A stretch of 45,483 bases of DNA from an uncultured bacterium (GTDB taxonomy: Bacteria; Bacillota; Clostridia; Oscillospirales; Oscillospiraceae). Both the position numbers and the translations under genes were made by a program. The notes beneath the pieces were generated by a model, which saw only the letters and a program-made list of their open reading frames with translations, had not been told where the DNA came from and ran no database searches. The stretch lies in NCBI GenBank assembly GCA_949288405.1, contig CASEKM010000001.1, positions 1 through 45,483 of the forward strand. Reading direction: 5' to 3'. Shown one piece after another: positions 15,826-41,544 of this stretch (positions are counted from its first letter, which is position 1; every line of letters starts with the position of its first letter).

Positions 15826-16101
15826 TCACAGAATGATGCAGATGAGGCCCCCGGAGCCCTCGTTGATAATCCGCTGGAGGGTCTCCCGCAGCTTTTCCCG
15901 GGCGTCCTCGGGCATGCGCTTCACCTTGGCGTTCAGGTCCTCCCCCACCAGCTCGTGGAAGGACTTGCCGAAGATGTTGGACTGCCAGATCTTGGCCGTG
16001 TCCCCCTCAAACTCCTGGAGCAGGTAGTGGATCATCTCCTCGCTCTGCTTCTCGCTGCCCACGATGGGGGATACCTCGGTCTCAATGTCGGCTCGGATCA
16101 T
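15826..16101 (-). CDS. spoIVA: Stage IV sporulation protein A, 3' fragment (residues 402-492 of the reconstituted gene)
   Basis: MIRADIETEVSPIVGSEKQSEE...IWQSNIFGKS...KLRETLQRIINEGSGGLICIIL is the recognisable SpoIVA C-terminus. Confidence 0.95.
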   Translation of the reverse strand: MIRADIETEVSPIVGSEKQSEEMIHYLLQEFEGDTAKIWQSNIFGKSFHELVGEDLNAKVKRMPEDAREKLRETLQRIINEGSGGLICIIL

Positions 16102-17741
16102 ATGTATTGTCTGGTACAAACAGAAGTACCTCCTCTTATTCGCTGAATCGAATATTCCTGCGCCTCTGGTATTGCCCTTAGATAGACTTTAGCCGTAATT
16201 CTGTCCTTCTGCTCTGTCCCGTTGACCTCAATGTGATCCAGCAGCGTGTCGATCACGCCCTCAGAGAAGCCATTCCCAAAATTCAGTTCTTTGGTAATCA
16301 CTTGTCGGAGCATCTCAATGGACTGCATCATGTCTTTGTTTTTCAGCTTCTCTGCTTCCAGCTCCTGAAGCTGCTCCTGTAACTTTTCTAATTCTTCATT
16401 AAAACGATTATTTCGCGTACTGAACTCCTGGTCTGTAATTCTCCCATCAATATTCAAATCTAAGAGACGGTCTTTCCTGCGCAAGATTTCATCCATATCC
16501 GCTTTACACTTGGCAATCTCTTTCTCCGTCTTTGCCCCACTCTCGATGGAGCTATAAACCTGAATCAGCTCGTGGACGATCTCCGCCTTATGAATGGCTA
16601 CCTCCTCTAGTGACTTCCGCATGATGTCATCCAGCTCGCTGGTATAGATGATCGGAGAGGGGCATCCGCTCTTTCCCCTCTTGGAGTACTCCTGGCACTG
16701 CCAGACCTCCTTGTTTCCGCTCTTATAGCGGTACAGAGAGCGATAATAGGGGGTGTGGTGAATCCCACAGATAATTTTACCGCTGTATGGGTACTTGTTC
16801 TGATAGCTGCTCTTATCCTCTGCACTTTGCTTAGCAAACCGTTTCATCAGGATCAAGTTGGCCTTCTCCCACAGTTCTTCAGACACAATGGCCGGCACAT
16901 TCTCTTCATCCTTGTACATGACCCACTGATCCGGCGTGAAGTTCTTGATTTTACTGAGCTTGTAGTCAATCTTTGTACTTTTTCTTCCACAGTAGTAGCC
17001 TTTATACTTGGGATTGCTCAATATACCTCGAATGGTACTAAATGAAAAGCCGTTCCCATTGGTGTTCCGATAGCCGCGGTCGGTCAAGTAGTTTGCAATC
17101 GTCCTGATCCCCATTCTCTGATTGGCATAGAGTTCAAAGATCAGGCGTACAACCTCTGCCTCTTTCTCGTCAATTACAAGACTACCATTCTGTTTTTGAT
17201 ACCCCCAGATCCGGTTGTTGCCCAGGACAGTCCCATTCTCAATGGCTCGCTTAAAACCGAACTTTACTCGCTCGGAAATCTTGCGTACCTCGTCTTGTGC
17301 AATGCTGGACATAATGGTTAGCCTCAGCTCCGCATCAGGCATAAGCGTATTGATATTATCTGACTGAAACAGCACTCCTACCCCGCTTTTTAATAGCTCC
17401 TGGGTATACTGAATACTGTCCAGGGTACTGCGAGAGAAGCGTGAGATCTCCTTCGTAATGATAAAGTCAAAGTGTCCGTCTTTTGCATCATCAATCATCC
17501 GCAAGAAGTTCTCCCGCTTGTGAACGCTGGTTCCGCTGATCCCTTCATCGACATATCCTTCTACATACGCCCAGTTTGGGCATTTCTGGATCAAATCAGA
17601 GTAATACTGCACCTGGGCAGAGAGGGAATGAATCTGTTCGTCTTTATCTGTGGAGACACGGGCGTAATAGGTCACCCTGAGAGGAAGTTCATAAATGCTC
17701 TTCCCTGCGTTAAGCGCAATACGAATTTCATATAAGTCCAA
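16098..17741 (-). CDS. Large serine recombinase (resolvase + recombinase + Zn-ribbon/coiled coil)
   Basis: YYARVST..EQ..SL..Q, DEGISG, KEISRFSR, AQDEVRKISERVKFG, ILSNPKYKG, C..H...C...C; stop codon lies in the att core. Confidence 0.96.
   Translation of the reverse strand: MDLYEIRIALNAGKSIYELPLRVTYYARVSTDKDEQIHSLSAQVQYYSDLIQKCPNWAYVEGYVDEGISGTSVHKRENFLRMIDDAKDGHFDFIITKEISRFSRSTLDSIQYTQELLKSGVGVLFQSDNINTLMPDAELRLTIMSSIAQDEVRKISERVKFGFKRAIENGTVLGNNRIWGYQKQNGSLVIDEKEAEVVRLIFELYANQRMGIRTIANYLTDRGYRNTNGNGFSFSTIRGILSNPKYKGYYCGRKSTKIDYKLSKIKNFTPDQWVMYKDEENVPAIVSEELWEKANLILMKRFAKQSAEDKSSYQNKYPYSGKIICGIHHTPYYRSLYRYKSGNKEVWQCQEYSKRGKSGCPSPIIYTSELDDIMRKSLEEVAIHKAEIVHELIQVYSSIESGAKTEKEIAKCKADMDEILRRKDRLLDLNIDGRITDQEFSTRNNRFNEELEKLQEQLQELEAEKLKNKDMMQSIEMLRQVITKELNFGNGFSEGVIDTLLDHIEVNGTEQKDRITAKVYLRAIPEAQEYSIQRIRGGTSVCTRQYI
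16100..16127. other. Left attachment site (core plus element-side arm)
   Basis: ATATG followed by TATTGTCTGGTACAAACAGAAGT; the arm is an 18/23 inverted match to the arm at 40320-40342. Confidence 0.9.
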
Positions 17742-17753
17742 GAGCGCGCCCCC

Positions 17754-17773
17754 CTAAACTTCTGTTTGTTTCA
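17754..17773. promoter_or_regulatory. att-arm-like half site upstream of the recombinase start
   Basis: CTAAACTTCTGTTTGTTTCA: 12-bp exact match to the left arm (ACTTCTGTTTGT) and 10-bp exact match to the right end (CTAAACTTCT). Confidence 0.6.
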
Positions 17774-17992
17774 TTATCAAATAATTTGTAGTTAACCAGC
17801 ATCTTTGTTCCGATACTAAAAGCTGCAAAAAAGTAAGGATAAGTCTATCTTGGAACAAGAAAAAAGAGAAACACTGAATATAGTCCTAAAATGACCATCA
17901 TTCGGCATTTCTCTTCTAAGCGCTAGGGTAGATCTCGATATAAGACAAATTGGGGCATTTTGAGCGTGAACACCTCTCCCCTACATCTTCTG

Positions 17993-18130
17993 TCAGCCCT
18001 TCCTTTTCTCTACAATCTTTATTTTTGCCTGTTCATATATTTCCCGGCTTATTTCCCCCTTTACGTACAAATTTTCATTTATTTGCAGCATAATTTCATG
18101 GACTAACTCGTTTTTCGCTTGTTCCAACAT
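17993..18130 (-). CDS. 45-aa SHOCT-like protein, candidate recombination directionality factor
   Basis: MLEQAKNELVHEIMLQINENLYVKGEISREIYEQAKIKIVEKRKG; GGAGGGAG RBS; upstream of and co-oriented with the recombinase; below the ORF-track size cutoff. Confidence 0.75.
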   Translation of the reverse strand: MLEQAKNELVHEIMLQINENLYVKGEISREIYEQAKIKIVEKRKG

Positions 18131-18150
18131 AGCACTCCCTCCATGGGACA

Positions 18151-18179
18151 ACTATATGCGTTCCTTATCCCTTCCATGT
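18151..18179 (-). promoter_or_regulatory. Sigma-E-like promoter of the small ORF
   Basis: ACATGGA-N14-CATATAGT; identical -10 box and spacing to the spoIVA promoter in this window. Confidence 0.65.
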
Positions 18180-18328
18180 ATCGAAAGGCGTGCTCAACAA
18201 ATTCTCTGAAAGATCATCATTTACCGCAACTGTATTGCAGATAATCTGACAAATTGGAAAATGTCCAAAATTTTTTGTTCTGCTTGACCAGAAATATCAA
18301 TCTTCGCCGCCAGATTGGTCCAGCACAT

Positions 18329-18371
18329 AAAATACCGCCACCTCAGGTATCCTGAGATGGCGGCTGTTTTT
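18329..18371 (-). terminator. Terminator after sbcC
   Basis: AAAATA-CCGCCACCTCAGG-TAT-CCTGAGATGGCGG-CTGTTTTT; separates the cargo from the recombination module. Confidence 0.8.
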
Positions 18372-18383
18372 GTAGCGAAGTTT

Positions 18384-21149
18384 TCAATTGACTACAACTG
18401 TTGCCGAACTGCTGCCCACTTGATTTTTCTTTACCACAATCTGATTTTCGATTTTTTCTTTGAGCGATTCTACATGTGATATGATGCCAACCAAGCGATT
18501 TCCATCCGTCAGGCCTGCCAGAGTGAGGTAGGCCTTATTGAGCGCTTCCGAATCCAGGGAGCCAAATCCCTCATCGACGAATAGCGTATCCAGCCGTATT
18601 CCAGTCGACATTTGCACTTCATCGGATAGGCCAAGTGCCAATGCCAAGGATGCCAGAAACGCCTCGCCGCCGGAGAGTGTGTTTACGCTTCTCCGCGATG
18701 CGTTAATATGATCTATAATATCTAACTCCAGGCCGCTCTGACTGCGTTGGTTGTTTGCTACCTTCCGCCGCTCCAAATCGTATTGTCCTCCGGACATTTT
18801 TCTGAGCCGCAGATTGGCAAGCTCCAAGATGTGGTCGAAATAGGCTGATTGAACATAGGTTTCCAGCATAACTTTGTCTTTGCCAGTCAACGTACCGTTC
18901 GCAGTGTCGGATAAAGCATTCATCCAGGTATACTGGGCCTCCAGATCAGACATCTCCTGTACTTTCTTCCTGATCTTTTCTTGTGCGCCCATATTGGTGG
19001 TAATTTGGGTGTGGAGTTCTTTGAGCGCGGAGGACATGACAGCTTTCTGAGCCGTTAATTCGTTTTTTTGTTCTGCCAGTGCGGAAATATCCAATACTGG
19101 AGCAGACGCTATCTGCGCACGGAGTTGCTCCGTAGCAGCGCGAAGCGCTGTCAGTTCTTCTTTACATGTATTATAGTTTGATTCCGCCTCAGATAATGCT
19201 GCCTTCAGAGCGCTCAACTGTTCTTGCAGGGCGGCTTTAGACGCCATAGCGGCATCTTTGTCCTGAAAACTCAATTTTGAGCGCATAGAGTCAATTTGGC
19301 TATCCAATTCTGAAATGGCAGCAGACAGAGAGGCGCTTTGCTCTTTGGCTGTGGCTAACGCCGTCTCGCATTCAGCAAGCGCTTTTTCACCTTCAGGTAT
19401 TTGCCGTTCCAAAATCTCCTTCCTGGCTGTTTGCTTCTCGGCTTCTTCAATTTGTCCTTCCAATTCTTTGATCTGGATCGCTAAATCTTTGATTTTTGTT
19501 TCAGCCGCATTGCGGATGTCCTCTGGCAGTTCTTCGCCAAAAACTAGAACTGCTGCGTTGGCGACGTTTTCTTCAGACGCTGCGACAAGACCTCTCTGAA
19601 CACTGGCGGTCCCGCTGGCCGTCTCAGTCTTTTGCTGAGCGGCCTCGTATTCCAGCTTGGCTTGTTCCACCTCGGCCTCAGTAGGAGCAGACTGAGATAC
19701 CGCAGCGAGGCGGGGATGTTCCGTTGAACCGCACACAGGACATGGAGTTCCGGGTGCCAAAGTGGAAGCAATGATCCCAGCCTGCTCATCCAAATACGCC
19801 TTGTTTTTTTGGTCATATTCTTGACGCAATCTGGCAGACTCCGACTCCGCATCCTGATAGGCAAGCTGCAATTCATTCAGCTTGCTGCGCGCATTTGCCA
19901 AATCACCAAGTCTGTCAAGCAAGGCTTGAAATTGCTGTTTCAGTTGACTCAGGTGCTGTTTCTCATTTAAAAGCTTTTCTCGCTCTACCGTGGCGAATTC
20001 TAATTCCCTGCTCTCAGCTCGCAGAGATTCCAGCTTGTTGAAAAGTGTCAGCTTTCTCTCCTGCTCGGTATCCTTTGCAGCCTCAGCAGCACTCAGCGCC
20101 TGACTCTTGTTGGAACGCTCCTGGAGCTTCACTTCCAACTCATCGTAGGATGGGAGCTGCAGCTCCAACGCAGTAATTTTTTTATCTAAGCTCTCCTGCT
20201 CGGGAATCGTTGCCTGGGCGGCACGCAAAGCCAAGGATAATGGTTCCAAGGATGCCGTCTTTTCAGATTCTTCCTTCGACTTCTCCTCTAAGGAGTGTTT
20301 CGCTGCTTGAACGGTTTCTGCACCCGCCAACTGTGACACAACATGTTCCAGCTCTGTTTCAATGTGCGCAGCCTCCTGCTCCAGCAGCGTCTGTTGGGTG
20401 GAATTCTCTTCGAGAAGCTTTTCCAGTAGGTCCTGCACCTCGGGAATGGGCAGCTTACCGTTTCGGGCTTCTTCAACTTGCTGCGCAAGTGGAGCGTCAT
20501 TCCGGCAGGCGATTCCCTCGATATATTGTCGAATGCTGATGTTTGCCTGTTCTCTGCGCGACCTTATTTCACTTGCGTCAGCCTTCAACTTATCTTGGAG
20601 AGACACAAACAATTCCGTGCCAAAAATATCGCGGAATATTTTTTGTCTCTCCTTAGTACCTGCCTGAAGCAGTTTTCGGAATTCGCCTTGAGAAATCATA
20701 CAGATTTGAGAGAATTGCTCCCGGGTGAGCCCGATCACCTCTTTCACTGCACGATCCACTCCGGTTGCCTTTGTAACGATTCTGCCGTCTGGATAAGTAA
20801 ATTGGGCATCTGCCGCCTGTTTTGTGGTACCAGTCCCTCGGGTCTTCAGCCGTTCATATTCAGGGTTGCGGCGCACTGTATATTCCTGGCCGCCGTAGGA
20901 AAAAACCAGCTCAACATAAGTGGGATCTTCGGCGTTCGCATACTTGGACCGCAGCATATCAACGGAACGACTGTCTCCGCTTGCCGCACCGAATAAAGCA
21001 TAGGTAATGGCGTCAAAGATTGTAGTCTTCCCCGCTCCAGTATCTCCTGTAATAAGGTAGAGGCCGCTTTCTCCCAGAGAAGAAAAATCTAACACTTGGG
21101 TGTGGGCGTATGGACCGAAGCCGGCAATCGTCAATTTAATAGGCCTCAT
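18384..21149 (-). CDS. sbcC: SbcC/Rad50-like SMC ATPase
   Basis: GDTGAGKT, Q-loop SQGEF, long coiled coil with CPVCG Zn hook, LSGGE, LFVDEGFGSLD, IISH. Confidence 0.93.
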   Translation of the reverse strand: MRPIKLTIAGFGPYAHTQVLDFSSLGESGLYLITGDTGAGKTTIFDAITYALFGAASGDSRSVDMLRSKYANAEDPTYVELVFSYGGQEYTVRRNPEYERLKTRGTGTTKQAADAQFTYPDGRIVTKATGVDRAVKEVIGLTREQFSQICMISQGEFRKLLQAGTKERQKIFRDIFGTELFVSLQDKLKADASEIRSRREQANISIRQYIEGIACRNDAPLAQQVEEARNGKLPIPEVQDLLEKLLEENSTQQTLLEQEAAHIETELEHVVSQLAGAETVQAAKHSLEEKSKEESEKTASLEPLSLALRAAQATIPEQESLDKKITALELQLPSYDELEVKLQERSNKSQALSAAEAAKDTEQERKLTLFNKLESLRAESRELEFATVEREKLLNEKQHLSQLKQQFQALLDRLGDLANARSKLNELQLAYQDAESESARLRQEYDQKNKAYLDEQAGIIASTLAPGTPCPVCGSTEHPRLAAVSQSAPTEAEVEQAKLEYEAAQQKTETASGTASVQRGLVAASEENVANAAVLVFGEELPEDIRNAAETKIKDLAIQIKELEGQIEEAEKQTARKEILERQIPEGEKALAECETALATAKEQSASLSAAISELDSQIDSMRSKLSFQDKDAAMASKAALQEQLSALKAALSEAESNYNTCKEELTALRAATEQLRAQIASAPVLDISALAEQKNELTAQKAVMSSALKELHTQITTNMGAQEKIRKKVQEMSDLEAQYTWMNALSDTANGTLTGKDKVMLETYVQSAYFDHILELANLRLRKMSGGQYDLERRKVANNQRSQSGLELDIIDHINASRRSVNTLSGGEAFLASLALALGLSDEVQMSTGIRLDTLFVDEGFGSLDSEALNKAYLTLAGLTDGNRLVGIISHVESLKEKIENQIVVKKNQVGSSSATVVVN

Positions 21150-22282
21150 TTCATACCCTCCTGTATCGACTCAATCAGCCCCTTGGTATAATTACGCTGT
21201 ATTTCGCTCATGGGTTGATTATTCTGCAATTCATAGAGCTCTTCAAATAAATCCAGCGGTGTTTTCCGCTTCACTTGTTCCGCACTGTCAATTACCTGAC
21301 TATTCCTGGTACGAGCATTATCGTAGCTGAGCCGCATGATGTTAGGGAAGATCACCCTCAGTTGTCCGATCGCTTCCAGCACATCCTCTTCATCCGTCAG
21401 GATAATATGCAGGTAATCATCTGTAACCGTGGCGGAGTAATAGGTTTTGTCCGTCAACTGTGCAAATGTGCCTGTAATTTCCCGCATATCGTGTCTGGGT
21501 GTTAGCGGGATCGTATGCACATTCAAATCCCCTTTGGCGCCGAGATCCACGACTGTAACGCTTTTATAGTGTTGTACCTCAGAAAAGGAGTACTTTAGCG
21601 GTGTCCCGCAGTAGCGGATCCGATTGGAGCCTATATTTTGGGCGCCGTGCAGATGGCCCAAGGCAACATAATCAAAATCAGCAAAGACAGAGGCATCCAC
21701 ATTGTCACTGCCCCCCACGTGGATCTCTTCTGATTCACAGGTCTCAGCGCCCGTGATAAATTGGTGGGTCAACAGCACGTTCCTGGTGTCTACATCCAGA
21801 TTCATGTGTTGGATCGCCACACGGATGGCATCCGTATAGTTCTCAATAGATTCATCCGGGAAATACCGCCGCACATGGGCCGGTTTTACAAAGGGAAGCA
21901 GCCAGAATTTGACGTTTCCATACGCATCAGACAATGTAATCGGGGTAATGGAGCCGTTGTAGGCAGGCGAGAGATAGATCCCAGCTCCCGCCATAAGCCG
22001 TCCGCCAAAGGATAGGCGCTCGGGAGAATCGTGGTTGCCGCTGATAATCAAGACCGGTAAGTGCCGCTGTGACAGTTGGAATAGGAAATCATCGAGAAGT
22101 GTTACTGCCTCCGCAGAAGGAACCCCTTTATCGTAGACGTCGCCGGCAATCAAGACCGCATCCGGCTGCTCCCCATCAATAATCTGGATAATTTCGTTCA
22201 GGATGTATTCTTGGTCGTCCAGCATGGAGATGTCGTTGACGCGCTTGCCAAGATGTAAATCGGAGAGGTGTATTAGCTTCAT
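21146..22282 (-). CDS. sbcD: SbcD/Mre11-like nuclease
   Basis: SDLHLG, AGDVYD, SGNHDS, THQF, ALGHLH metallophosphoesterase motifs; overlaps the sbcC start. Confidence 0.95.
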   Translation of the reverse strand: MKLIHLSDLHLGKRVNDISMLDDQEYILNEIIQIIDGEQPDAVLIAGDVYDKGVPSAEAVTLLDDFLFQLSQRHLPVLIISGNHDSPERLSFGGRLMAGAGIYLSPAYNGSITPITLSDAYGNVKFWLLPFVKPAHVRRYFPDESIENYTDAIRVAIQHMNLDVDTRNVLLTHQFITGAETCESEEIHVGGSDNVDASVFADFDYVALGHLHGAQNIGSNRIRYCGTPLKYSFSEVQHYKSVTVVDLGAKGDLNVHTIPLTPRHDMREITGTFAQLTDKTYYSATVTDDYLHIILTDEEDVLEAIGQLRVIFPNIMRLSYDNARTRNSQVIDSAEQVKRKTPLDLFEELYELQNNQPMSEIQRNYTKGLIESIQEGMK

Positions 22283-22409
22283 ATAGGCATCCTCCAGCTA
22301 TTGATCACTTTGAGTTTATCCGTCAAAAATACTACAATTTCAACCATCATCTTTCCGGCAGCTCCTCCAGTTTCCAATATTCTGACCTGTTCCTGCATGT
22401 TCTCTGCGG

Positions 22410-22580
22410 TCACTTGAGCCCATGCCGCTTGGCGATTTTCTCCAGCTCCTCATCGTCCGCCTTCCGGATCTCATCCTCCTCCATCAGCATGACGGGCATT
22501 CCGCCGGCAAAGGCGCCGGCGTACACGTCGTCCAGCAGCTTCCGCCGCAAGTCTTCCGAGTTTTGTCCATTATTTTTCAT
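22410..22580 (-). CDS. 56-aa acidic helical hypothetical protein (copy A)
   Basis: MKNNGQNSEDLRRKLLDDVYAGAFAGGMPVMLMEEDEIRKADDEELEKIAKRHGLK; GGAGG RBS; paralog at 39543-39713. Confidence 0.8.
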   Translation of the reverse strand: MKNNGQNSEDLRRKLLDDVYAGAFAGGMPVMLMEEDEIRKADDEELEKIAKRHGLK

Positions 22581-22669
22581 TTGAACGTCCTCCCTTTGAT
22601 CAGATTGAAACTTGTGGGGTCTGGGAAACGAACACGAACCCCGCTCCTCCTTCACCCTATTTTTCCTGC

Positions 22670-25600
22670 CTATTCAATACTGTACTGCTGCCCTGCCTGG
22701 TTATTTCTGTTTTGGTACGATCCCAGGTAGACCCAGCCATCCCCTTCCTCTGCTTCACAGACATAGGCCTGTTCCGGGCGCCCGTCGTCCTCCAGAAACT
22801 CATTGTACACAGTCATAACCCAATAATCTCCCAGCTGGTAAACGCCGGTAACCTCATCTCCCTGATATTCCATGCCCTCCGGGGTGGACAGTGCCGTGCC
22901 TTCTTCCGAGACCCGCTCCAAAAACCACAGGCGGAAGGAATCCGTCATATAAATCTCCCAGCCATTGATGTAGTAGTCGATGCTGCTCTCATCGGGGGGC
23001 AGACTTCCGATCAGGTCCACGGCGGATTGGATGTCGTCCTCACGATGGAAGTCGGTGAGCTTTCCGGCAATGACCCGATAGGAATCGTCATACTGGAGAA
23101 AATAAGACTCTTCATATTGGCTGTAATGGAACGTGCCCTCGTCGATGCTCCTGGCCAGCTCCCGATAGGGGGCTCCGTCCATGTAGCGCCGGACGCCGAA
23201 GAAAATTCCGATGGCAGCAGCTACCAGAGCCGCCGCAAGAAGCAGCTTCTTCCGCTGCTTTTCCTTCTGCGCCTGCATCTTTTCCCGCTGAGCCTGCGCT
23301 GCGGCGGCCTGTTCCGCCTGTTCCTTTTCCAGACGGGCCTGCTCCTCCGCTTTCTTCCGCTGCTTCTCCTCCTCCAGCGCCTTGACCCGCTCCAGGCACT
23401 GGGCCTGTCGCTCGGCGCTGTCCCGGTACCCATTCAGCGCCTCAAAGGCCTTTGCGGCCTTTCGGAAGGCGGTAATGCTCTTGGCCTTCTCCATGGCCTG
23501 GCAGGCGCTGTCGTAGTCGGCCTGCTGTCTGGCCGCCGCCTGCTCCGCTTCCCGGCGGGCCTTCTCCTCTGCTTTTTTCTTCTTCTGCTCCTCTTCCAGC
23601 ACCTGGGCGCGCTCCAGGCACCGGGCCCTCCGCACGCCGCTGTCTTGGTACCCCTCCAATTCCTCAAAGGTCTTGGCCGCCTTTCGGAACGCGGCGGCGG
23701 TCTTGGCCTTCTCCATGGACCGGCAGGCGCTGTCGTAGTCAGCTTGCTGTTTCTCCGCCTTTTCCAGCACCGCCCGAAGGACATTCAAAAGCTGGGCAGC
23801 CGCTTCCTCTCGGGTCGTCTCCTCCGGCTCCACTGAGACTCTCGGAAGCTGAGCAGTCACCTCCACCCGGGCCATCTCCCCCGGGCGCGGCGGCACGCTT
23901 CTGACGCGCACATCAGGTTCTTTGCGGGCGGCGGGTTCTTTTTGTGCAGCGGGAACTGTTTTCTTCGGCGTTCCTCTCGGGATGGGCCGGCCCTCCAGGG
24001 CGCAGACCAGATCCTCCTCCCGGATGATCTGGATGTTTTTCCCTTTGGCCCGCTGCTCCTGGACCTGTTCCAGCTTCCGCGCTCCGAAGTCTCCCAGACT
24101 GCCGATGACCAAATAGTTGGTTTTCCCGCTGATGGCCTGGGTGCACCGTCCCCCCTTGTCCTGGATTTTTGCCTTGATGGCTTCCCGGTCGTTGCCGCAG
24201 TGGGCAAACTCTCCTGTCAGGACAAAGGCGCTGCCGGGGATGGTCACCGCAGGTACCCGGTCAAAGGGGACCTTTTCCAGGGCTTTTTGCTGTTTCTCGA
24301 TGCGGATGCGCTCCTGATCCACAATGGAGTAACCCTGCTCCTGGTACCCAACCGCCTGCTCCAGGATGGTGCGGTAGATCTCCTCCTGGGTAATGCCGCC
24401 AATCCGCTCCGCCAGCTGCCGGGGAAACTCATCCGGCTGGAAGTCCGGGTCGCCTGGGGCGTAGTCCTCATATTGCTCATCGACGCGGTATCCCGGGCAC
24501 TCAAAGCCGGAACCGGAGATATCCCGCTGCCCGTCCTTCTCATAGAAAAAGGAACTGTCGCTGGCCCCCAGGCGAAAGACATTGTAAAAATTATAGATCC
24601 CCCACGCCAGGCCGTAGTCCCCGGCCTGGTCCATCAGCCGGTCCAGCACTTCCTCTGTGCTCGTCAGATCGTTGTAAGAGCTCTTTTGCAGCGTCTCGCG
24701 CAGCTGGCCCAGGCGGGCGGCTACGTCGCCGGCAAACCGTCGCATTTGGACGGTAAATTCCGGCGGCAGGGTGCTTTCTAACTCCTGAACGGATCTCCGC
24801 TCCCTCTGCTCCAGCTGACCAGCATCCTCTTCTGCCTCCAGCTCCTGGACGGTCCCGTTACTCTCCACCCGGATGCGGTACATGTTCCTGGGCTGGGCCG
24901 CGCCGGCCACCGGCTTGAGCGCCCCCTGGATCGGCGTGTCAAAATTCATGGCATTGGCAAACGTAATGGTGAACGCCTCATTTTTCCCGTTGTACTGCCG
25001 CAGCTGGCGCAGGAAAGCCCCCACATAGCGGTAGGCGTCCGGGATACCAGCCACCAGATTGCGGTCAATGACGATGGCGTAGTTGTCCTGCCCATCTTCC
25101 TGAATGTGCAGCATATGGTATGCCAGCAGGTTCATCATGGTCATGCCGGTGAGGGGCACGTCGTTGTCGTTGAATAGGAGGGGCAGCAGTTTTTTGTGGA
25201 TCTTCTCCTTGGGGAGGCGCAGCTCCGGGACCTGATCCAGCTCCAGCAGAAGCCTGATAATCTCCGGCACAAACACATCCCGTTTTTTCACCAGGAGCGG
25301 GTGCTCCGACAGCTTGATCGCGTTAATCCGCACACCGCTTTCCAGTCCGTTTTTCCGGAAATCGTCTTCATTGAAAAACAGGACGTCAGTGGAAAACAGC
25401 TGGGCGACGGTCACGGCGTTCAGCCGGCCATCCTCGGCGGCGTAGCTGCCGAACTGGGCCTGGTCATCCTGGGTGAGCGCTTCCTGGGAACCGCCCTCTC
25501 CCTGTACAGCCGGAGCCAGCGCCGCATCCCCGATCCTCTGGACAGAGCGGAGGACGGGCAGCAGCTGCTGTTCAAAAACAGGGATATCGACGGGGTCATA

Positions 25601-26872: not shown

Positions 26873-26975
26873 CTTTCCCGCTTCCTCTCTGTCACAATCT
26901 GATTTAACTGGCCAAAGCGCCGCACCGCATCTCCCACCGCGGAGTTCCGTGATTTCAAAACAACATTGCAAGAAA

Positions 26976-27024
26976 ATTATACGTTAAAATATATCAAAAA
27001 TCTATACTATGCAGTTTGCATAGT
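26976..27024 (-). promoter_or_regulatory. Palindrome plus -10 box module, copy 1
   Basis: ACTATGCA-AAC-TGCATAGT, then 24 bp, then TATAAT (minus strand). Confidence 0.6.
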
Positions 27025-27054
27025 GTCCAATATAGCCAAGCTATCCGCCGGCGC

Positions 27055-27088
27055 AAAAAAAGAGGACAGGAACTCCTGTCCTCCTTTT
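27055..27088. terminator. Terminator, copy 1
   Basis: AAAAAAA-GAGGACAGGA-AC-TCCTGTCCTC-CTTTT. Confidence 0.8.
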
Positions 27089-27105
27089 GGGATTCTTTAT
27101 GCGTG

Positions 27106-28770: not shown

Positions 28771-28793
28771 GAAAGCCACCGGCGAGATGGGCC

Positions 28794-29279: not shown

Positions 29280-29289
29280 TGCCCTCACC

Positions 29290-32229: not shown

Positions 32230-32240
32230 GACGGAACCTC

Positions 32241-33962: not shown

Positions 33963-34079
33963 AAGCCGCAACTTCCTTTCTCACTTCGCCAGTATCGCTA
34001 TCTCAATTGTACACCGTACTTCTTTCCGCCTCGCAGCCTCCGTAAAAAAGAAGGCTGCCGGAGCGGACATCTAGAATTT

Positions 34080-34107
34080 ATTATAGTGATTTTCATTGCA
34101 CTTGCAA
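34080..34107 (-). promoter_or_regulatory. Sigma-A-like promoter for the HEPN-ParB operon
   Basis: TTGCAA-N16-TATAAT. Confidence 0.5.
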
Positions 34108-34193
34108 GAGAGGACCCGCCTTACGCCTGTCCCCGATCTCCCGATTCCAACGGTCGGAAGCAACCGCGGGTCTCCAGATATTGGCCCGTTGTT

Positions 34194-36236
34194 TTAAATC
34201 GGCACATTGTATTTCCTGGCATAGCGAAGGACTTCTGCCGGACTGGCCCGGCGGATGTCATCCGCTTCCAGAAACATTCCCTTCAGGCCGGAGAAGGCCC
34301 CCGCATAGACCTTTTCCAGAATCAGCTTTCTCACTCGGGCAATGTCTATGTCGTATAGGGCGATGTGCAGCTCGTCGCGGTCAATGCCCTTGAGGGAGAG
34401 GACGCTGGACTGAGCAGCTTCTGCCACAAATTTGGAGAGCGGCTTCTCCTGAGTGCCGAACAGGTACAGTTTTCGCTTTGCCCGCGTCACCGCCACATAA
34501 AAAAGCTTTCGCTCGTCGTCTATGTCCGACGCATATTGCTCCTTGTTCTCCTCAAATCTCCCGCCCAGGACATGCCAGTACTTCCTGCCTCCCTGCCTGC
34601 GTCCGGGGAACTCACCTTTTTGCAGATTGGGGAGAAATACCGTGTCGAATTCCAGTCCCTTGGACTTATGGACTGTCATCAGCTGCACCGCATCCGGAGC
34701 AATGTTCGCCTGCTGGAAGTTGTGATATTTGTACTCCTCCGCGGCGCGTGTTTCCAGAAAGCGGAGCACACCGGAGACCCGGGCAGATAGCTGCTGGTCT
34801 CCGTAGATGGTATCGTAGTCGTCCAAAATGGTACATACGCCCTCCAGGTCGTCGCTGCGGACAGTCCAGTCTGTTGCCCTGTCATCCAAGAACTGGACTT
34901 TCCAGGCAAATTCCCGCAGGACCAGGCTGAGCCGGCAGCGCCGGCAGTCTCCCCCGCTCCGCGCCATTTTTCTCAGGTACCGAAAGCCGGAATTGAGGCA
35001 TTCTCCCTCGGCGTATCCGTTCCAGCAGGCAGCAAGGGCCGGCTTGTCCACGTCCTGCAGGATGGAGAGCGTCTGAACAAACCGGCGGAAATAGTTCCCC
35101 TCAAAAAACTGCTTCGCACTGTCCGTGTAGTAAGGGACCCCACCACGGCACAGATGCTCCCCGATGGAGTCGATGTACTTTCCTTTCCGCACCAGAACCG
35201 CGATCTCCGAATAGGGGACCCCCTGACTGTGGCGGCGTGTGATTTCCTCCGCGATGGCATCGTATTGCAGGCCTTCTGTGTAAAAGCTCTGGGCCAGACA
35301 CGCATCCCGTTCCGAGACGCCCCGGGCCCGCATCCGCTTTTCCAGGCGGCGGCCGTTGTTGCGGATTACCGTGTCAGCCACGTCTACGATCTCCGGTACG
35401 CAGCGGAAGTTGTCCTCCAGACGGATCTGCACCACGTCGGGATACCGCTTCGAAAATCCGATCATATTTTCCGCATTGCTCCCTCTAAACTGGTAGATGG
35501 TCTGGTCGTCATCTCCCACCACGCAGAGGTTGGCACCGGCGTGAGCGAAGCGGGCGATGAGCTTCTCCTGAAGATCGTCCACGTCCTGGTACTCATCCAC
35601 CACCAGATACCGGACGGTTTTCAAATAGTCCTGAAGGGCCGGCTCTGCCTCAATGGCGTGCAGCGTCTCCAGGATCAGCAGGGAAAAATCCAGGTAGCCG
35701 CGCTCATATAGGGCTGTGCGGTACTGTTCAAAGACCTCCCGCTGCTCCTGGGTCCAGAGGGCGTGGCTGTCGTAGTCGTCCGCCATCTTCTCCATGCACT
35801 CCAGAAACAGCCGGATATCGTTGGGGCCTCCCGTCAGACCCAGCCGCTCTCTTCCGCATGAACTGCCGTAGCGGTGTACAAAAAGGTGGGTTTTCACCGT
35901 ATCCAGTACCTGGAAGTCCCGAAATTTCTCGCTGCCGCGGTCCAGAAGCTGCTTGCAGAAGGCGTGGATGGTCCCTACATACATCCCATCAGCCCCGCCT
36001 GCGGTGAGTCCATCCTGCTCCAACGCCCTCTGGATCCGTTCCTTCATGGAGTTTCCGGCCTTATTGGTAAAGGTAAAGGCCACGATATGCTCCGGCCACA
36101 CCTCCGGCTTTTCCCGCAGAATGTACGCAATGCGCCGGGTGATAACCTCCGTTTTCCCAGACCCAGCGCAGGCGATCAGCTGGAGATTGTGGTCGATGGT
36201 CTCCACCGCCCGCTGCTGTTCTCGTGTCAGTTCCAT
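34194..36236 (-). CDS. UvrD/PcrA-like SF1 helicase with a C-terminal small-domain fusion
   Basis: ACAGSGKT, FTFTNKA, GTIHAF, VVDEYQD, VGDDDQTIYQFRGS, TVHKSKGLEF, ERKLFYVAVTRAK. Confidence 0.93.
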   Translation of the reverse strand: MELTREQQRAVETIDHNLQLIACAGSGKTEVITRRIAYILREKPEVWPEHIVAFTFTNKAGNSMKERIQRALEQDGLTAGGADGMYVGTIHAFCKQLLDRGSEKFRDFQVLDTVKTHLFVHRYGSSCGRERLGLTGGPNDIRLFLECMEKMADDYDSHALWTQEQREVFEQYRTALYERGYLDFSLLILETLHAIEAEPALQDYLKTVRYLVVDEYQDVDDLQEKLIARFAHAGANLCVVGDDDQTIYQFRGSNAENMIGFSKRYPDVVQIRLEDNFRCVPEIVDVADTVIRNNGRRLEKRMRARGVSERDACLAQSFYTEGLQYDAIAEEITRRHSQGVPYSEIAVLVRKGKYIDSIGEHLCRGGVPYYTDSAKQFFEGNYFRRFVQTLSILQDVDKPALAACWNGYAEGECLNSGFRYLRKMARSGGDCRRCRLSLVLREFAWKVQFLDDRATDWTVRSDDLEGVCTILDDYDTIYGDQQLSARVSGVLRFLETRAAEEYKYHNFQQANIAPDAVQLMTVHKSKGLEFDTVFLPNLQKGEFPGRRQGGRKYWHVLGGRFEENKEQYASDIDDERKLFYVAVTRAKRKLYLFGTQEKPLSKFVAEAAQSSVLSLKGIDRDELHIALYDIDIARVRKLILEKVYAGAFSGLKGMFLEADDIRRASPAEVLRYARKYNVPI

Positions 36237-36237
36237 A

Positions 36238-37509
36238 TCAGTCCTCCAACGCCTGCAGGGCCGTGTAGAGCTGGACGTTGGCGAGGGCCCGGCCCTCCGC
36301 GTCCGCACCCTCGGGGATCTGGAAGTGCTGAAGCAGAAATTCCCTGGTATTGTGCTCCATATCAAATTCCTCGGAAACATCTGCGGCGTAATCCAGCAGA
36401 TCCAGGAAGGGGTTTTTGATCTCCTGCATACCTGTATACCGGGCTGCCCGGGAGATCAGCTTCCCCTGGTTGCCCAGGGCCTGAGTGGACACCAGCACGT
36501 CGCCCTGTACAAAGTCAAAAAAGCGCCTCATAGCCAGGTCCACATCGTCCGCGCTCTCCACTGCCTCCCTGTCCACCCCAGGCAGACTGCTCAGTGCTTT
36601 TTTCCAGCCCATCGATTTCCAGGGGCGGATCAGGCTCTGGAAGGTCCCAGCGGGGACGCCCTCCCGCACGCGGACAGCGGCGATTTGGAAAATATCCTTT
36701 GCCGGAGCCGCAAAGCTGGGCACCTCCTCACACCAGAATGCGCAGTAGTTCTCCAAAGCTCCCCCGTCCCACTCCTCGATGGGCTGAAACTCGCTCTCCG
36801 GCACCTTCTTCGGCGGCAGCGTAACCCGGGGATGGGGGATCCCCTTCTCCTCCAGGATGTGAGCCAAATTTCTCCGCCGGGCCTCGGTGGCGGGCCAATA
36901 GGGCTTTTTTGTCCGGTAGCGTGTGAGATCTGTCTTGATCCGCTCATACATAGCGGGAACGCTGCTGAACTTCGAGAGCAGGACCATATCCTCCTCCCGG
37001 CAGACGCGCAGCTTCTCCGCCGCCTGCTCCGCTAGGTCATACTCGGCCACAAACCCGTAGTACAGGGCGGCAGACTCATACAGCTCTCCGCTCAGTCCGT
37101 CCGTTTTGAGGATCTCATCACACCATTTCCGCGGCTTCACAAAGTCGTTGCGCTCATAGCTGCGCAGGAGATCGCGGAGGACCCACTGCCGCCGCCAGTC
37201 CCAGTCCGGGTGGCTGCCCAGATAGGCCAGGGCCTCCTGCTCAAACTCCGGCTGTCGGATCACCGCGTGATAGCGGCAGCGGCTGAAGGCCGCCGTCTCT
37301 TCATCGAACAGGCTCAGCAGCTCAGGGATACAATCCCTCGCGTCCTTGGGGTTCTCAAACCGCCCCATAAAGGGCTTTAGGAATTCGTTCCCGCAGGTCT
37401 CCTCTTTGTAGTAGAGGACCTCTATTACGATTTTGTCCAGGATGTCCTGACTGCGGCAGTCCTGGCAGAGATAACTCCGGGCCTCCCGCCCGCAATTCAA
37501 ACACTTCAT
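36238..37509 (-). CDS. Zn-ribbon/helical protein with a degenerate DnaQ-like (DEDDh) exonuclease domain
   Basis: N-terminal CLNC..CQDC; C-terminal DIFQIAAVRVREG..TFQSLIRP, DFVQGDVLVS, NPFLDLL; ExoI and ExoIII catalytic residues are not conserved. Confidence 0.7.
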   Translation of the reverse strand: MKCLNCGREARSYLCQDCRSQDILDKIVIEVLYYKEETCGNEFLKPFMGRFENPKDARDCIPELLSLFDEETAAFSRCRYHAVIRQPEFEQEALAYLGSHPDWDWRRQWVLRDLLRSYERNDFVKPRKWCDEILKTDGLSGELYESAALYYGFVAEYDLAEQAAEKLRVCREEDMVLLSKFSSVPAMYERIKTDLTRYRTKKPYWPATEARRRNLAHILEEKGIPHPRVTLPPKKVPESEFQPIEEWDGGALENYCAFWCEEVPSFAAPAKDIFQIAAVRVREGVPAGTFQSLIRPWKSMGWKKALSSLPGVDREAVESADDVDLAMRRFFDFVQGDVLVSTQALGNQGKLISRAARYTGMQEIKNPFLDLLDYAADVSEEFDMEHNTREFLLQHFQIPEGADAEGRALANVQLYTALQALED

Positions 37510-37548
37510 AGGGATCAAACTTCCTTTCTAAGTCAGTGTAGGCAGTAG

Positions 37549-39513
37549 TCATTTTAGCTTCATTTTTCCCGCCGTGTCCATGTCCTCTTGCGAGAGGTTC
37601 TGACTCCGATATTCCAGCAGCATGGCAGTCAATTCGGGGTTGCCGAGTTTGGCCGATTCTTTCACATAATAGCCGATGTCCTTTGCCGTAAGATACCGTT
37701 CCATCAGAATGACCCGCAGGCAAGCGAGATCTGTCCACAGTGTCTTGCAATGGCCTTTGATGTATTTCAGGCAGCCTGTCTTCACCTCGTCTAAGATCTG
37801 CTCTCCGGCTAGATAGCGTTCCGCGAAAGACCGCGCAGCAATCTCACGGATGGAGGGCTGCAGCTCCGCGATATTTCCACCAGCGATAACAAGCTCTGGC
37901 TGTGCATCCTCTCCAAACGCCTTTTGGCCAAACTTGACCTTACTGCCCAGCAGTGTGATCCGTTTCAAGAGGCAATGCGCAAAGGCACCCGCGCCGACTT
38001 CCTCCACGGCGGCAGGCAGTGTCAGCTCCGTCAGGCACGCCCCGTCGAAGGCGTGGTTATCAATTTTTGTGAGACTCTTCGGGAGCGTGACTGCGTCCAA
38101 TCCGGTATCCGAAAATGTATATTTTCCAATGCTGGTCAGCTGAGGAGGAAACTCTACCTGATGAAGCTGTGTACAGCCTTTACAGAGGCTGGCGCTGATT
38201 TTCTTTGTTTTAGCTGATAACTTTAGTGTGGTCAGCGCTGTACAGCCGGTAAAGGCCTCGGAGCCCATGGCCGTGACGGTGTCGGGGATCGTAACGGACG
38301 TGATCTTTTCGCATCCGGAAAACGCGGCATCCACAATCTTTTTCACCCCATCCGGTATCAGGCATGCCCCGGTAATTCCTCCAACGCAGATATATAGGAT
38401 CGTGCCATCGACAGAGAGAATCATACCCTTTTCAAATCGGAAATTGGGATTATCCGGGTGGATTTCCACTTCCGCCAGACTGATGCAGCCGGAAAATGCC
38501 CGTTTTTCTATTTTTTTCACACTGGCAGGAACAGATACTCTGACCAGGCTTGTACATCCAGCAAAGGCCTCGGCGCAGATCTCCTCTACGCCCTCTGGAA
38601 AAGTAATCCCGGTGAGGGTGGTACATTCCGCGAAAAGGCGGGGGCTAACTGACTTCTTCTCCGCCGGAAACACGATGTCTCCGCCAGGGCCGGCGTATTT
38701 TAGCCATGTACCCTCTTCTGTAATCTGTGTCATGTAGTCGCCTCCCTGCACACTGCCGTCCGCTTGAAACGCAATATGGTTCTTCTCGGCGTAGTGCTCG
38801 GCGTAGCTGCCCGCCGGGGCGCTTATCTGAATCCTATTGCAGTGATCGAATGCGGCACCCCCTATCGTGGTCACGCTCTCTGGAAGAGAGACAGACTGGA
38901 GACCCGTACAGCTAGAGAAGGCGTAGCTGCCGATGAAGGTCATGCCATCGGGAAAAGATAATCCACGCAGACTGGTACAACCTACGAAGGCGGACGTGTC
39001 AATAGATTTCATGCTCTTCGGGAAAGATAGATCCGTTAAAGCCGGGCAGCTGTGAAATGCGCTTTCATGGATGGCAGTCAATGTGCTGGGAAACTCCACA
39101 TGCACCAAACTGCTGCAGTGGTAAAAGGCGTAGTCCCCAATGCTGCTTACGCCGTCCGGGATACTGACGCTGGTGAGGCCGGAACAGTCCCGGCACAGGT
39201 CGCGCGCAAGCGCAGTTACTCCCGCAGGGATCATGAGTTCCTTTAGGCTGGAGCAGCCTTGAAAAGCGGCGACATCCATCTGTTTGAGCGTAGCGGGCAG
39301 TTGGATGTTCCTAAGATTGGTACAGCCATCAAACGCGCCGCTTTTGATCTTCGTTACGCCGTCAGGCAGGATAATACTCGTGAGATCGTCGCGTCCACGA
39401 AAGGCGCGGGAGCCAATTCCGGTTATCCCCTCTGGAATGACCACCTCCCCGCCGGGGCCGTTGTACTCCTCCAATATCCCATATTGAATAACAAAATCAG
39501 AATTGCCGCTCAT
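37549..39513 (-). CDS. BspA-type (LRR_5) leucine-rich repeat protein, no signal peptide
   Basis: Many IP.GVT.IG..AF.GC..L..I repeats in two blocks, each headed by Y.GPGG.(V/I)..P; helical C-terminal domain. Confidence 0.9.
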   Translation of the reverse strand: MSGNSDFVIQYGILEEYNGPGGEVVIPEGITGIGSRAFRGRDDLTSIILPDGVTKIKSGAFDGCTNLRNIQLPATLKQMDVAAFQGCSSLKELMIPAGVTALARDLCRDCSGLTSVSIPDGVSSIGDYAFYHCSSLVHVEFPSTLTAIHESAFHSCPALTDLSFPKSMKSIDTSAFVGCTSLRGLSFPDGMTFIGSYAFSSCTGLQSVSLPESVTTIGGAAFDHCNRIQISAPAGSYAEHYAEKNHIAFQADGSVQGGDYMTQITEEGTWLKYAGPGGDIVFPAEKKSVSPRLFAECTTLTGITFPEGVEEICAEAFAGCTSLVRVSVPASVKKIEKRAFSGCISLAEVEIHPDNPNFRFEKGMILSVDGTILYICVGGITGACLIPDGVKKIVDAAFSGCEKITSVTIPDTVTAMGSEAFTGCTALTTLKLSAKTKKISASLCKGCTQLHQVEFPPQLTSIGKYTFSDTGLDAVTLPKSLTKIDNHAFDGACLTELTLPAAVEEVGAGAFAHCLLKRITLLGSKVKFGQKAFGEDAQPELVIAGGNIAELQPSIREIAARSFAERYLAGEQILDEVKTGCLKYIKGHCKTLWTDLACLRVILMERYLTAKDIGYYVKESAKLGNPELTAMLLEYRSQNLSQEDMDTAGKMKLK

Positions 39514-39542
39514 ATGCTCTGCTCCTTCCTGTATTCTTGCGT

Positions 39543-39713
39543 TCACTTCAGCCCATGCCGCCGGGCGATCTCCTCCAGTTCCTCCTCGTCCGCCTTTCGG
39601 AACTCATCTTCCTCCAGCAGCATGGCGGGCATACCGCCGGAAAATACTCCGGCGTACACATCGTCCAGAAGCTTCTGCCGCAGGTCATCCGGGTTTTGGC
39701 CACATGTTTTCAT
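39543..39713 (-). CDS. 56-aa acidic helical hypothetical protein (copy B)
   Basis: MKTCGQNPDDLRQKLLDDVYAGVFSGGMPAMLLEEDEFRKADEEELEEIARRHGLK; AGGAGG RBS; 43/56 identical to copy A. Confidence 0.8.
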   Translation of the reverse strand: MKTCGQNPDDLRQKLLDDVYAGVFSGGMPAMLLEEDEFRKADEEELEEIARRHGLK

Positions 39714-39750
39714 CAGTTGTTCCTCCTATCACAGTTGTTATCAATATAAC

Positions 39751-39804
39751 AAAAAGGCACCCTCCTTCCCCATGCTCAGCATTGGGAAAGAAAGTGCCTT
39801 TTTT
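39751..39804 (-). terminator. Terminator/attenuator hairpin upstream of the first cargo operon
   Basis: AAAAAGGCAC...GTGCCTTTTTT with an extended paired stem. Confidence 0.75.
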
Positions 39805-39898
39805 ATACTATGCAGCCAGCATAGTATCGCTGGCAAAACAGTGCCTCGTACAGAAAAGCATCGAGATGTTTCCATGGTGATTGATGTATAATCCGCAT
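39803..39898 (-). CDS. 31-aa putative leader or small peptide
   Basis: MRIIHQSPWKHLDAFLYEALFCQRYYAGCIV; GGAGGA RBS 6 nt upstream; promoter immediately upstream. Confidence 0.55.
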   Translation of the reverse strand: MRIIHQSPWKHLDAFLYEALFCQRYYAGCIV

Positions 39899-39932
39899 CA
39901 TTGCTCCTCCATATTTCTGGAATCTATTATGC

Positions 39933-39961
39933 ATTATAACATGAATGCGGCAGTAAAACAA
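39933..39961 (-). promoter_or_regulatory. Sigma-A-like promoter at the head of the cargo
   Basis: TTGTTT-N17-TATAAT with a TG extended -10. Confidence 0.6.
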
Positions 39962-40319
39962 CTTCGTCTATATTGCTCTTCCAAGTGAAAAAATTGTGCA
40001 TGAACCCGTAAAAGTAAGTAACAGATGGCTCCAAAAAATGTGATTAGGGGAAGGACACATTTTCCTCCCCCTTCACAGAGCCATAACAAGCAAATATGCA
40101 GAAACGGTAAATTAGAATGGGAAATATGGGCGATAGAATAGCATCTATAGAGAAACAGCAGAAAGTATACAAAATAAACTGCCCCTGTTTGTTAGACAGT
40201 ATAATATACTGAATCACAAACTGGACAGTTCAAAGTGGACCGTCTTCTTTCCGCGTTCAGATCATCACTGCCAACTCCACTTGCAGCGTCCTCCCGTTCT
40301 GTTGACTTCGAAGTTCTAA

Positions 40320-40344
40320 ACTTCTTTTTGCTCCATATAATATG
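40320..40344. other. Right attachment site (element-side arm plus core)
   Basis: ACTTCTTTTTGCTCCATATA followed by ATATG; SpoIVA homology stops exactly here (..KASAPSIH|). Confidence 0.9.
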
Positions 40345-41544
40345 GATAGACGGTGCGCTGGCCTTTAGGCGCACCCCGTACCGTCCTCCCTGCTTGACGA
40401 TCTCCGGCTCCTCCAGCTTCAGGGAGTCGATGGAGGGCACCACAATGCCGTAGCCGGTCTCCTCCACCTCCTTCAGGGCGTCGGCCACCTTGTCGTAGGA
40501 CGCCTTCACCTGGGAGAGCTGGGTGAGCAGGGCCATCAGGTCCCCGTCGTCCCCGATCTGGAAGCCCGACTGCTGGGACAGGGTGTGGTAAAACAGGGCG
40601 CGGGGCAGCTCCAGCACGGCGGAGGCCAGGCCGGTGCCCAGGTCAATGGCGTTCACCTTGGCCTGGCTCACCTGCTCACACTCCCGCATGGAGCCCACCG
40701 CCTCCTCCACGTCCCGGATGCGGTGCAGCCGGTCCGCCCCATCCCGGATGGCCTCGTACAGGGCGGCCTTGATGGGGTGCTCCTGGGGCAGTGCGTCCAC
40801 CCAGGGGGGCAGGAACAGGTCCAGCTCCTTCAGGGGGAACTCGTAGAGCACCTGCTTCAAAATGCCGTTGATGTCCTCCTCCCGCAGCTCCAGGCAGTTG
40901 CAGGCCACGCAGGTCACCTGGTGGCGCTGGGCGATGTCCGCCCGGATGGCCCGGGCCCGGTCGGAGTCCGGGTAGGCAGAGTTGAGCACCACCAGGAAGG
41001 GCTTGCCCAGCTCCTTCAGCTCGGAGATCACCCGCTCCTCCGCCTCCAGGTAGTCCTCCCGGGGGATGTCGGTGATGGAGCCGTCGGTGGTGACCACGAT
41101 GCCGATGGTGGAGTGCTCGGCGATCACCTTCCGGGTACCCACCTCCGCCGCCTCGGACATGGGGATCTCGTGGTCGAACCAGGGGGTGGTCACCATCCGC
41201 TGCTCCTCCCCTTCCAGCTGGCCCACCGCCCCGGGCACCAGATAGCCCACGCAGTCGATGAGCCGCACCTGAAAGGCGGCCTCCCCCTCCATGGAGACGG
41301 TGACCGCCTCCTCCGGGACAAACTTGGGCTCCGCCGTCATGATGGTGCGGCCCGAGCCGCTCTGGGGCAGCTCGTCCCGGGCCCGCTCCCGGCGGTAGAC
41401 GTTGTCGATGTTGGGGATGACCAGGGTCTCCATAAACCGCTTGATGAAGGTGGACTTGCCTGTACGCACCGGCCCTACCACGCCGATATAGATGTCGCCC
41501 TCGGTCCGAAGCGCGATATCCTCGTAGATTTTGCGGTCTTCCAC
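40340..41544 (-). CDS. spoIVA: Stage IV sporulation protein A, 5' fragment (residues 1-401; reads on into the element to 40192)
   Basis: IYEDIALRTEGDIYIGVVGPVRTGKSTFIKRFME, DELPQSGSGRTIMTAEPKFVP, HSTIGIVVTTDGS, EEPEIVKQGGRYGVRLKASAPSIH; AAGGAGG RBS before GTG 41544. Confidence 0.97.

Follow-up and report, generated by a model that had tools for sequence, protein, structure and literature searches.

The DNA considered here is positions 1 to 45,483 of contig CASEKM010000001.1 (assembly GCA_949288405.1), from an uncultured member of the Oscillospiraceae (Clostridia); this whole stretch of 45,483 nucleotides is called the window below. In it the gene for SpoIVA, a morphogenetic ATPase of the spore coat, lies in two pieces on the minus strand, separated by an element of 24,240 bp that carries its own large serine recombinase. 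The features that bear on the split, from the promoter of the gene to its end, are these:

41586..41614, minus: sigma-E-type promoter motif of spoIVA (TCATAT-N15-CATATAGT); matrix score 19.6, the site itself being in the training set
40345..41544, minus: spoIVA 5' part: codons 1-400, encoding the ATPase domain and the larger share of the middle domain; start GTG at 41544
40320..40344, minus: left junction, attachment site attL; CA crossover at 40344-40343 in His401, then a 23-bp element arm
16105..40344, minus: the intervening element, 24,240 bp, 54% GC
40257..40340, minus: 27 codons and a stop, the future C-terminal tail of the recombinase after circularisation
18151..18179, minus: promoter motif ahead of the small gene; its -10 matches that of spoIVA exactly, 15-bp spacer, degenerate -35
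17993..18130, minus: helical protein of 45 amino acids (aa), candidate recombination directionality factor (RDF), conserved in related elements
16098..17741, minus: large serine recombinase, 547 aa, with Resolvase, Recombinase and Zn-ribbon domains
16100..16127, minus: right junction, attachment site attR; 23-bp element arm, with the CA crossover at 16104-16103
15826..16101, minus: spoIVA 3' part, codons 402-492 (C-terminal domain)

A profile search assigns positions 1-400 of TIGR02836 to the 5' part and positions 402-492 to the 3' part. Both breaks carry CATAT on the minus strand (40344-40340 and 16104-16100), spaced 24,240 bp apart, and an in-silico join at this pentamer gives a single open frame of 492 codons from the GTG at 41544. 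The element-side arms pair about the CA at 18 of 23 positions, against 3-9 of 23 for the 13 other centres tried; a binomial estimate for such pairing is about 4e-7. Base composition follows the same boundaries: 54% GC in the element, 65-66% in the flanks and 64% genome-wide. A sequence-only reading of the window had already described the split, the shared CATAT, the 18/23 arms about CA and the rejoined frame of 492 codons, and all of its numbers were reproduced; its anatomy, crossover and candidate directionality factor stand, and the sequences of relatives add support. It had also named a second intact spoIVA as a finding that would speak against it; tblastn of the assembly (80.7% complete, 346 contigs) found none, only the two pieces being matched. 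The joined frame shows, at the level of sequence, that precise removal of the element leaves an intact 492-codon spoIVA. In Bacillus subtilis the last 91 residues of SpoIVA are indispensable. In the integrated state the 5' frame continues 50 codons into the element, and the spoIVA promoter, whose layout is also found 5' of intact spoIVA in relatives, would before excision drive production of a shortened SpoIVA whose ATPase domain is whole.

One might suspect the arrangement of being an assembly error, the source being a fragmented metagenome bin of 346 contigs. The chance of this is next to nil. Misassembly, which the sequence-only reading had itself raised, is ruled out because contigs of other strains bridge both junctions: the left in run X2 (40100-40417, 10 differences), the right in X2, X3 and X4 (9, 50 and 10 differences). 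The rule for bridging was 31 bases. Identical contigs from X1, possibly the source sample, cross both junctions with only ~25-30 host-side bases and fall short of it. The same site is moreover occupied in cultured isolates and in one closed genome.

Relatives of the recombinase (52-91% identical) were found at 25 loci, and at 21 of these the spoIVA 3' part follows the gene directly, from His401 on. The remaining four comprise one element inverted against the 5' part, one with the recombinase inside the element, one contig end and one circle-type junction. Carriers include Pseudoflavonifractor capillosus An827 (its genus group is also that of this genome), P. phocaeensis and Ruminiclostridium sufflavum DSM 19573. 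Where both ends are present in one genome (20 genomes), the rejoined frame is open in every case, the element arms pair at 14-21 of 23 positions and the host arms at 6-13. The common core shrinks to CA alone in four of the 20; in the inverted element (G320) TG stands in place of CA, which fits the prediction of an asymmetric crossover dinucleotide. On the sequences compared, these natural variants fix the crossover at CA, and integration is at one conserved site.

Counting the closed genome G582, both junctions are seen in 21 genomes, and one junction in 12 more. In G582 the only spoIVA is split, by an element of 5,895 bp that keeps the recombinase and the small gene; neither there nor in relatives that are 98-100% complete is there a second intact spoIVA. 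Prevalence was gauged in 250 genomes of the family at least 90% complete, 229 of them with a spoIVA match; at least 8 of the 229 (~4%) have both halves at this site, a lower bound because only 23 genomes, those with two matches or low scores, were re-queried. A sample of the genus gave a split spoIVA in 2 of 34. An attR pattern applied across the class gave 6 matches in 300 genomes besides G000, only 2 of them real, and is too strict for prevalence.

The last codon and stop of the recombinase gene share bases with the right junction and with the beginning of the spoIVA 3' part (ATG402). This overlap invites a reading in which no excision is needed: translation of the 3' half would start at Met402, coupled to the recombinase stop, and the halves would assemble as a two-piece protein. 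Such an arrangement is extremely unlikely in view of the relatives, in which codon 402 is TTA (L033, L034) or ATC (L075), and of the inverted element of G320, which leaves the 3' half without a preceding recombinase; a sporulation promoter score of 10 or more is found in 0 of 30 recombinase upstream regions.

The catalytic motif of the recombinase includes a serine (Ser30) that is invariant in 27 relatives. The features of the multi-targeting, TndX-like class (PMC10083194), that is DUF4368 and many target genes, are absent: no DUF4368 match was found in the recombinase, and 22 of 25 related loci lie at one codon of one gene. The 45-aa gene lies 389 bp upstream of the recombinase gene and recurs in most related elements, beside the recombinase or elsewhere. 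The small protein matches no established family: its hit to SHOCT_2 is weak (E 0.31), and its best Atlas scores (0.82) are to unnamed clusters. Some elements (L048, L063, L073) hold two or more copies of the small gene, often near the left end.

Structure prediction with ESMFold2 gives the pair of small protein and recombinase a score of 0.73 (best control 0.00), with contact agreement of at least 82% and a partner confidence (predicted local distance difference test, pLDDT) of at least 77. That mark is reached by 116 of 157 solved pairs and by 2 of 215 mismatched ones, rates that are approximate with the alignments used here. The predicted interface lies at both ends of the long coiled coil, at recombinase residues 381-402 and 467-500 (the coiled coil being placed from a relative's model); this is close to the junction predicted as the binding place of known RDFs (PMC12286644). 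The model supports binding of the small protein to the recombinase, and the small protein is predicted to be its directionality factor.

In C. difficile spoIVA is controlled by sigma-E, and ATA at -35 marks sigma-E promoters where AC marks those of sigma-K (PMC3789822). A promoter matrix was trained on host spoIVA promoters only (27 sites from 43 upstream regions). Scores of 8 or more were obtained before 15 of 34 small genes. The figures for comparison are 3 of 30 for recombinase genes, 16 of 300 for the remaining open reading frames (ORFs) of the loci and 7 of 600 for ORFs taken from this genome. In the best small-gene sites the spacer is mostly of 15 bp, and the distance to the start codon is short and similar. 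A two-site promoter pattern was written after both sites had been seen and is not counted as evidence. From these motifs we infer that the small gene would be switched on by sigma-E.

We consider it likely, then, that the element at the CA of His401 is excised during sporulation by its own recombinase with the 45-aa partner, under sigma-E of the mother cell, and that this restores SpoIVA while the spore keeps the element. In outline, sigma-E in the mother cell would transcribe the small gene; the small protein would redirect the recombinase to attL x attR; the element would leave as a circle, after which the existing spoIVA promoter would yield full-length SpoIVA; the forespore would retain the element. 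Excision in the mother cell would be needed for spores, if skin, SPbeta, gin and a sporulating relative are a guide. In C. difficile loss of SpoIVA largely abolishes coat encasement (PMC8265636).

Several points weigh against developmental excision. The small-gene promoter of this strain scores 4.6 (shuffle p ~0.05) and has a weak -35; 19 of the 34 small-gene promoters score below 8; the enrichment overstates independence because the 34 small genes are related; and sigma-E shares its -10 with sigma-K (PMC3789822). Neither a restored-gene junction nor a circle junction was seen in X1, X2, X15 and X21 (left end) or X1-X4 (right end); the six runs examined, five of them as contigs, which lose rare forms, include none known to come from a sporulating culture. 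Loose ends near the left junction were considered as restored spoIVA and rejected: they differ in codon usage and belong to the intact spoIVA of relatives. To the same side belong sigK and spoIIIAA, which were not found in this 80.7%-complete assembly (it cannot settle absence), and the sporulation record of R. sufflavum, an entry in a secondary table, for a genome in draft. Finally, recombinase and SpoIVA identities correlate weakly (Spearman 0.27), which implies horizontal movement of the element as well, and hence excision, on some occasions at least, in cells other than a dying mother cell.

The missing junctions, and the failure to find sigK and spoIIIAA in an incomplete assembly, would suit a plain knockout, in which the insertion inactivates spoIVA and carriers form no spores. 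This we hold to be very unlikely. Both halves are open and conserved in 20 of 20 genomes, and the protein of the 3' part is 99% identical to that of three relatives. The genes spo0A and sigE are intact in all five carriers tested, this genome among them, which also has a sigF-like gene and spoIIID, both just below curated cut-offs; R. sufflavum, whose genome (100% complete, a draft of 60 contigs) has a split spoIVA only, is scored sporulation-positive in Table 1 of PMC11318147, citing the species description. We infer that the strain described here sporulates. A sigK-like gene of R. sufflavum is itself in two pieces ~7 kb apart (G317:C5:7390-15104); this organism may need two excisions to sporulate.

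The evidence for movement bears on another alternative, an ordinary mobile island for which spoIVA is a conserved landing site: excision would occur at a low rate in any cell, spores would come from cells that had lost the element, and there would be no developmental gating. On a quick 40-row SpoIVA tree the split state changes 7 times, with at least 4 changes forced by well-supported branches, and the weak recombinase-host correlation points the same way. A Mob relaxase is found in the G322 element, and circle-type junctions occur in assemblies (L044, P0001, P0011). One of these, in G324 (L044, L089), has a frameshifted recombinase and stands beside an intact spoIVA in the same bin, which may be mixed; it is either an excised pair or a stranded remnant. 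An island of this kind, though it agrees with much of this, seems to us unlikely, because enrichment of the sigma-E-type motif, at a fixed distance, is found ahead of the small gene but not of the recombinase. Furthermore, G000, G013, G311 and G236 cluster in both trees (the second by FastTree) though their cargo differs, which fits long retention; and mobility is compatible with gating, as in SPbeta. Horizontal spread and long retention both appear to occur.

Returning to developmental excision, a further consequence concerns the recombinase itself. Circularisation would extend it by a tail, conserved and ~27 codons long, because the stop it has in the integrated state is host spoIVA DNA. Carried on into the left arm, the circle frame gains at least 22 codons in 18 of 19 elements (22-34 in 16, exactly 27 in 8); the count excludes the element with an internal recombinase and L044, whose tail, computed separately, has 32 codons. 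In the eight elements with 27 codons the stop falls at the same codon, spelled TGA, TAG or TAA, and differences among the eight tails fall on third codon positions 273 times, against 196 and 153 for the other two. Of the other frames through the region, the third is open that far in 2 of 20 rows only, and the spoIVA frame in 15 of 20, with scattered lengths. Recombinases that bear a tail exist in nature: two of 54 homologues (P0001 and P0011), and L044 besides. At the end of the tails is a stretch that is hydrophobic and strand-like; AlphaFold2 gives a pLDDT of ~30 for the P0001 tail, and of 34 overall for a natural fragment of 97 aa.

In archaea, attP splits the tyrosine integrases of the SSV type, and Tn5397 may have its TndX gene overlapping the right end. 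A direct case of a recombinase C-terminus altered by excision was not found in the literature searched. In phiRSS0, ORF13 is cut by attP on integration and loses ~26-27 C-terminal residues, a shortening similar to that predicted here; there the gene cut is a repressor, whereas in the spoIVA element it is the recombinase itself (PMC3816273). C-terminal extensions of serine recombinases may block the RDF site, and extra C-terminal strands have been proposed to affect directionality (PMC12286644); the tail here is likewise strand-like. From that suggestion comes the idea that the short form serves excision and the long form integration, the most speculative step of this analysis. Combined with the foregoing it would make a double switch in a recombination cassette widespread among clostridia: a 45-aa factor driven by sigma-E gates the earliest step of coat assembly by excision from spoIVA; excision rewrites the recombinase, of which the integrated copy yields a short form that terminates in host DNA; the conserved, strand-like tail of the circle form favours integration or shuts the enzyme off. 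We offer this as a tentative scheme, which could be true but is more probably wrong in some part.

Recombinases of this kind were also met away from the His401 site. Two loci of one genome (L050, G037:C36; L051, G037:C15) point to a second spoIVA site, ~8-10 codons beyond the first. The recombinase that uses it is 49% identical, and its frame runs on into the spoIVA 3' part, so that the integrated state encodes a fusion of recombinase and SpoIVA. At L077 (G219:C59) spoIVA homology ends near codon 428 and the small-protein family follows; no 3' half was found, and this is possibly a third site. An attP pattern gave 8 matches in metagenomes and 0 in viral contigs. Four of the eight (L080, L081, L082, L085) represent a single recombinase remnant, degenerate and frameshifted, whose palindrome is intact and which lies beside shikimate-pathway-like genes, outside spoIVA; the other four, without a recombinase, were taken as chance. 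Named phages have only distant recombinases, at most 48% identical. A 124-kb provirus record (L088, G323) has at one end a recombinase of 53% identity, together with the same arm, the CA core and the small gene; at the other end the first 8 kb show no arm to match, and spoIVA is absent. A true prophage may use the unit of recombinase, arm and small gene.

The cargo of the element in this strain reads as follows.

37549..39546, minus: BspA-type leucine-rich-repeat protein, DNA ~90% identical in the G013 element
36238..37518, minus: protein with a weak DEDD exonuclease-like region, the match being below cut-offs
34194..36380, minus: UvrD-family helicase
32241..33971, minus: Swt1-like HEPN protein
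29290..32556, minus: 1088-aa protein with three repeats like the C-terminal domain of the RNA polymerase alpha subunit (alpha-CTD) and a sigma region-4 helix-turn-helix
28794..29357, minus: HIRAN-domain protein
22670..28488, minus: two BRCT-domain proteins, 460 aa and 1433 aa
18384..22282, minus: sbcD-sbcC nuclease pair

No gene for phage structure, packaging, lysis or conjugation was found among the 12-13 proteins of the element. No defined defence system was recognised either, the PADLOC matches of the cargo being to generic ATPases or helicases. On domain content, the run of genes with alpha-CTD repeats, HEPN, HIRAN, BRCT and UvrD could be an undescribed defence or DNA-damage module. A small acidic ORF (~56 aa) is present in two 82%-identical copies (39519-39713 and 22387-22580), and there are further internal repeats (23314-23759; 24005-24268 / 27130-27393). 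Elements of relatives on single contigs range from 5.9 to 53 kb, and their cargo is mutually unrelated: glutamate synthase, transporters, S-layer proteins, type III restriction and, in G322 alone, the Mob relaxase. Phage structural domains were not found among 77 cargo proteins of 7 related elements. The 5.9-kb element of G582 (L129) holds, by eye from the translations, an apparent AgrB/AgrD-like peptide pair and a dockerin-type protein.

If the proposal is true, SpoIVA, a universally conserved coat morphogenetic ATPase, becomes one of the few whose genes are assembled by programmed DNA excision, and such excision is common in gut and soil Clostridia. Genome-based sporulation calls would then misread carriers as spoIVA pseudogene strains. 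The cultured type strain R. sufflavum DSM 19573, which is not a pathogen and carries a split spoIVA, permits a direct test. The recombinase, its attachment sites and the candidate RDF would make a new orthogonal switch, and the excision-dependent tail a natural test of how C-terminal extensions control the direction of serine integrases.

The spoIVA element has three of six features of the class that includes skin, SPbeta and gin: the coding region of a mother-cell gene is interrupted and its frame restorable, there is a large serine recombinase of its own with attachment sites symmetric about a dinucleotide, and no other intact copy of the target is present. It may have the remaining three: the 45-aa protein is a candidate for the directionality factor, control by a mother-cell sigma factor is suggested by the promoter motif, and the defining feature, excision confined to the mother cell of sporulating cells, is proposed. 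Reported targets of such elements are sigK, spsM, spoVFB, spoVR, gerE, kamA and yabG (PMC6957869, PMC10747680, PMC4191935); the sequence-only reading had listed sigK, spsM, spoVFB and gerE, which are indeed reported, and had left out spoVR, kamA and yabG. It named no characterised element in spoIVA, and none came to light in the literature covered. In the available text of PMC6957869, PMC4191935 and PMC10747680 the name spoIVA does not occur, nor does it in the recombinase survey PMC10083194 (text and 8 supplements), and no report of spoIVA as a target of integration or of an intervening element was found in the literature searched, mostly non-subscription; an earlier entry could stand in Abe et al. 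2013 (Mol Microbiol 90:415) or in the supplements of bioRxiv 10.1101/2022.02.25.481979. What the window presents is a skin/gin-type element at spoIVA, a target not found in the literature so searched.

Among known systems the closest parallels are two, and by analogy the spoIVA element would work like the skin of C. difficile (PMC5025042) and resembles gin in lacking phage genes (PMC5595907). C. difficile skin interrupts sigK and is excised by the recombinase CD1231 with the sigma-E-dependent RDF CD1234 (PMC5025042). Common to both are a recombinase at the edge, a small partner with a sigma-E promoter (a motif only, in the spoIVA element), a split mother-cell gene and a clostridial host. They differ in target, sigK as against the coat ATPase spoIVA, and in that no phage genes were found in the spoIVA element; the 45-aa protein is of a different helical family, a distinction drawn without sequence comparison to CD1234; the recombinase gene of the spoIVA element overlaps the attachment site; and excision of the spoIVA element is a prediction. 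The gin element of Bacillus cereus ATCC 10987, with gerE as its target, uses GirC and GirX (PMC5595907). Like the spoIVA element it is an island without phage genes, and it is comparable in size (28.6 kb); it too carries a recombinase and a very small RDF (6.5 kDa; in the spoIVA element a candidate), and has imperfect inverted-repeat arms about a central dinucleotide. It has another target and another core, and three recombinases where the spoIVA element has one; the cargo of the relatives of the latter varies widely, over 5.9-53 kb. The same logic extends to SPbeta in spsM, the phi3T-type phages in kamA, vfbin (spoVFB), vrin (spoVR) and yin (yabG), where a recombination unit common to unrelated mobile elements restores a mother-cell gene (PMC6957869, PMC4191935, PMC10747680); kamA is, like spoIVA, controlled by sigma-E. 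Compared with the targets of those elements, SpoIVA acts early, and it alone among morphogenetic coat proteins is conserved across all spore formers (bioRxiv 10.1101/2022.02.25.481979).

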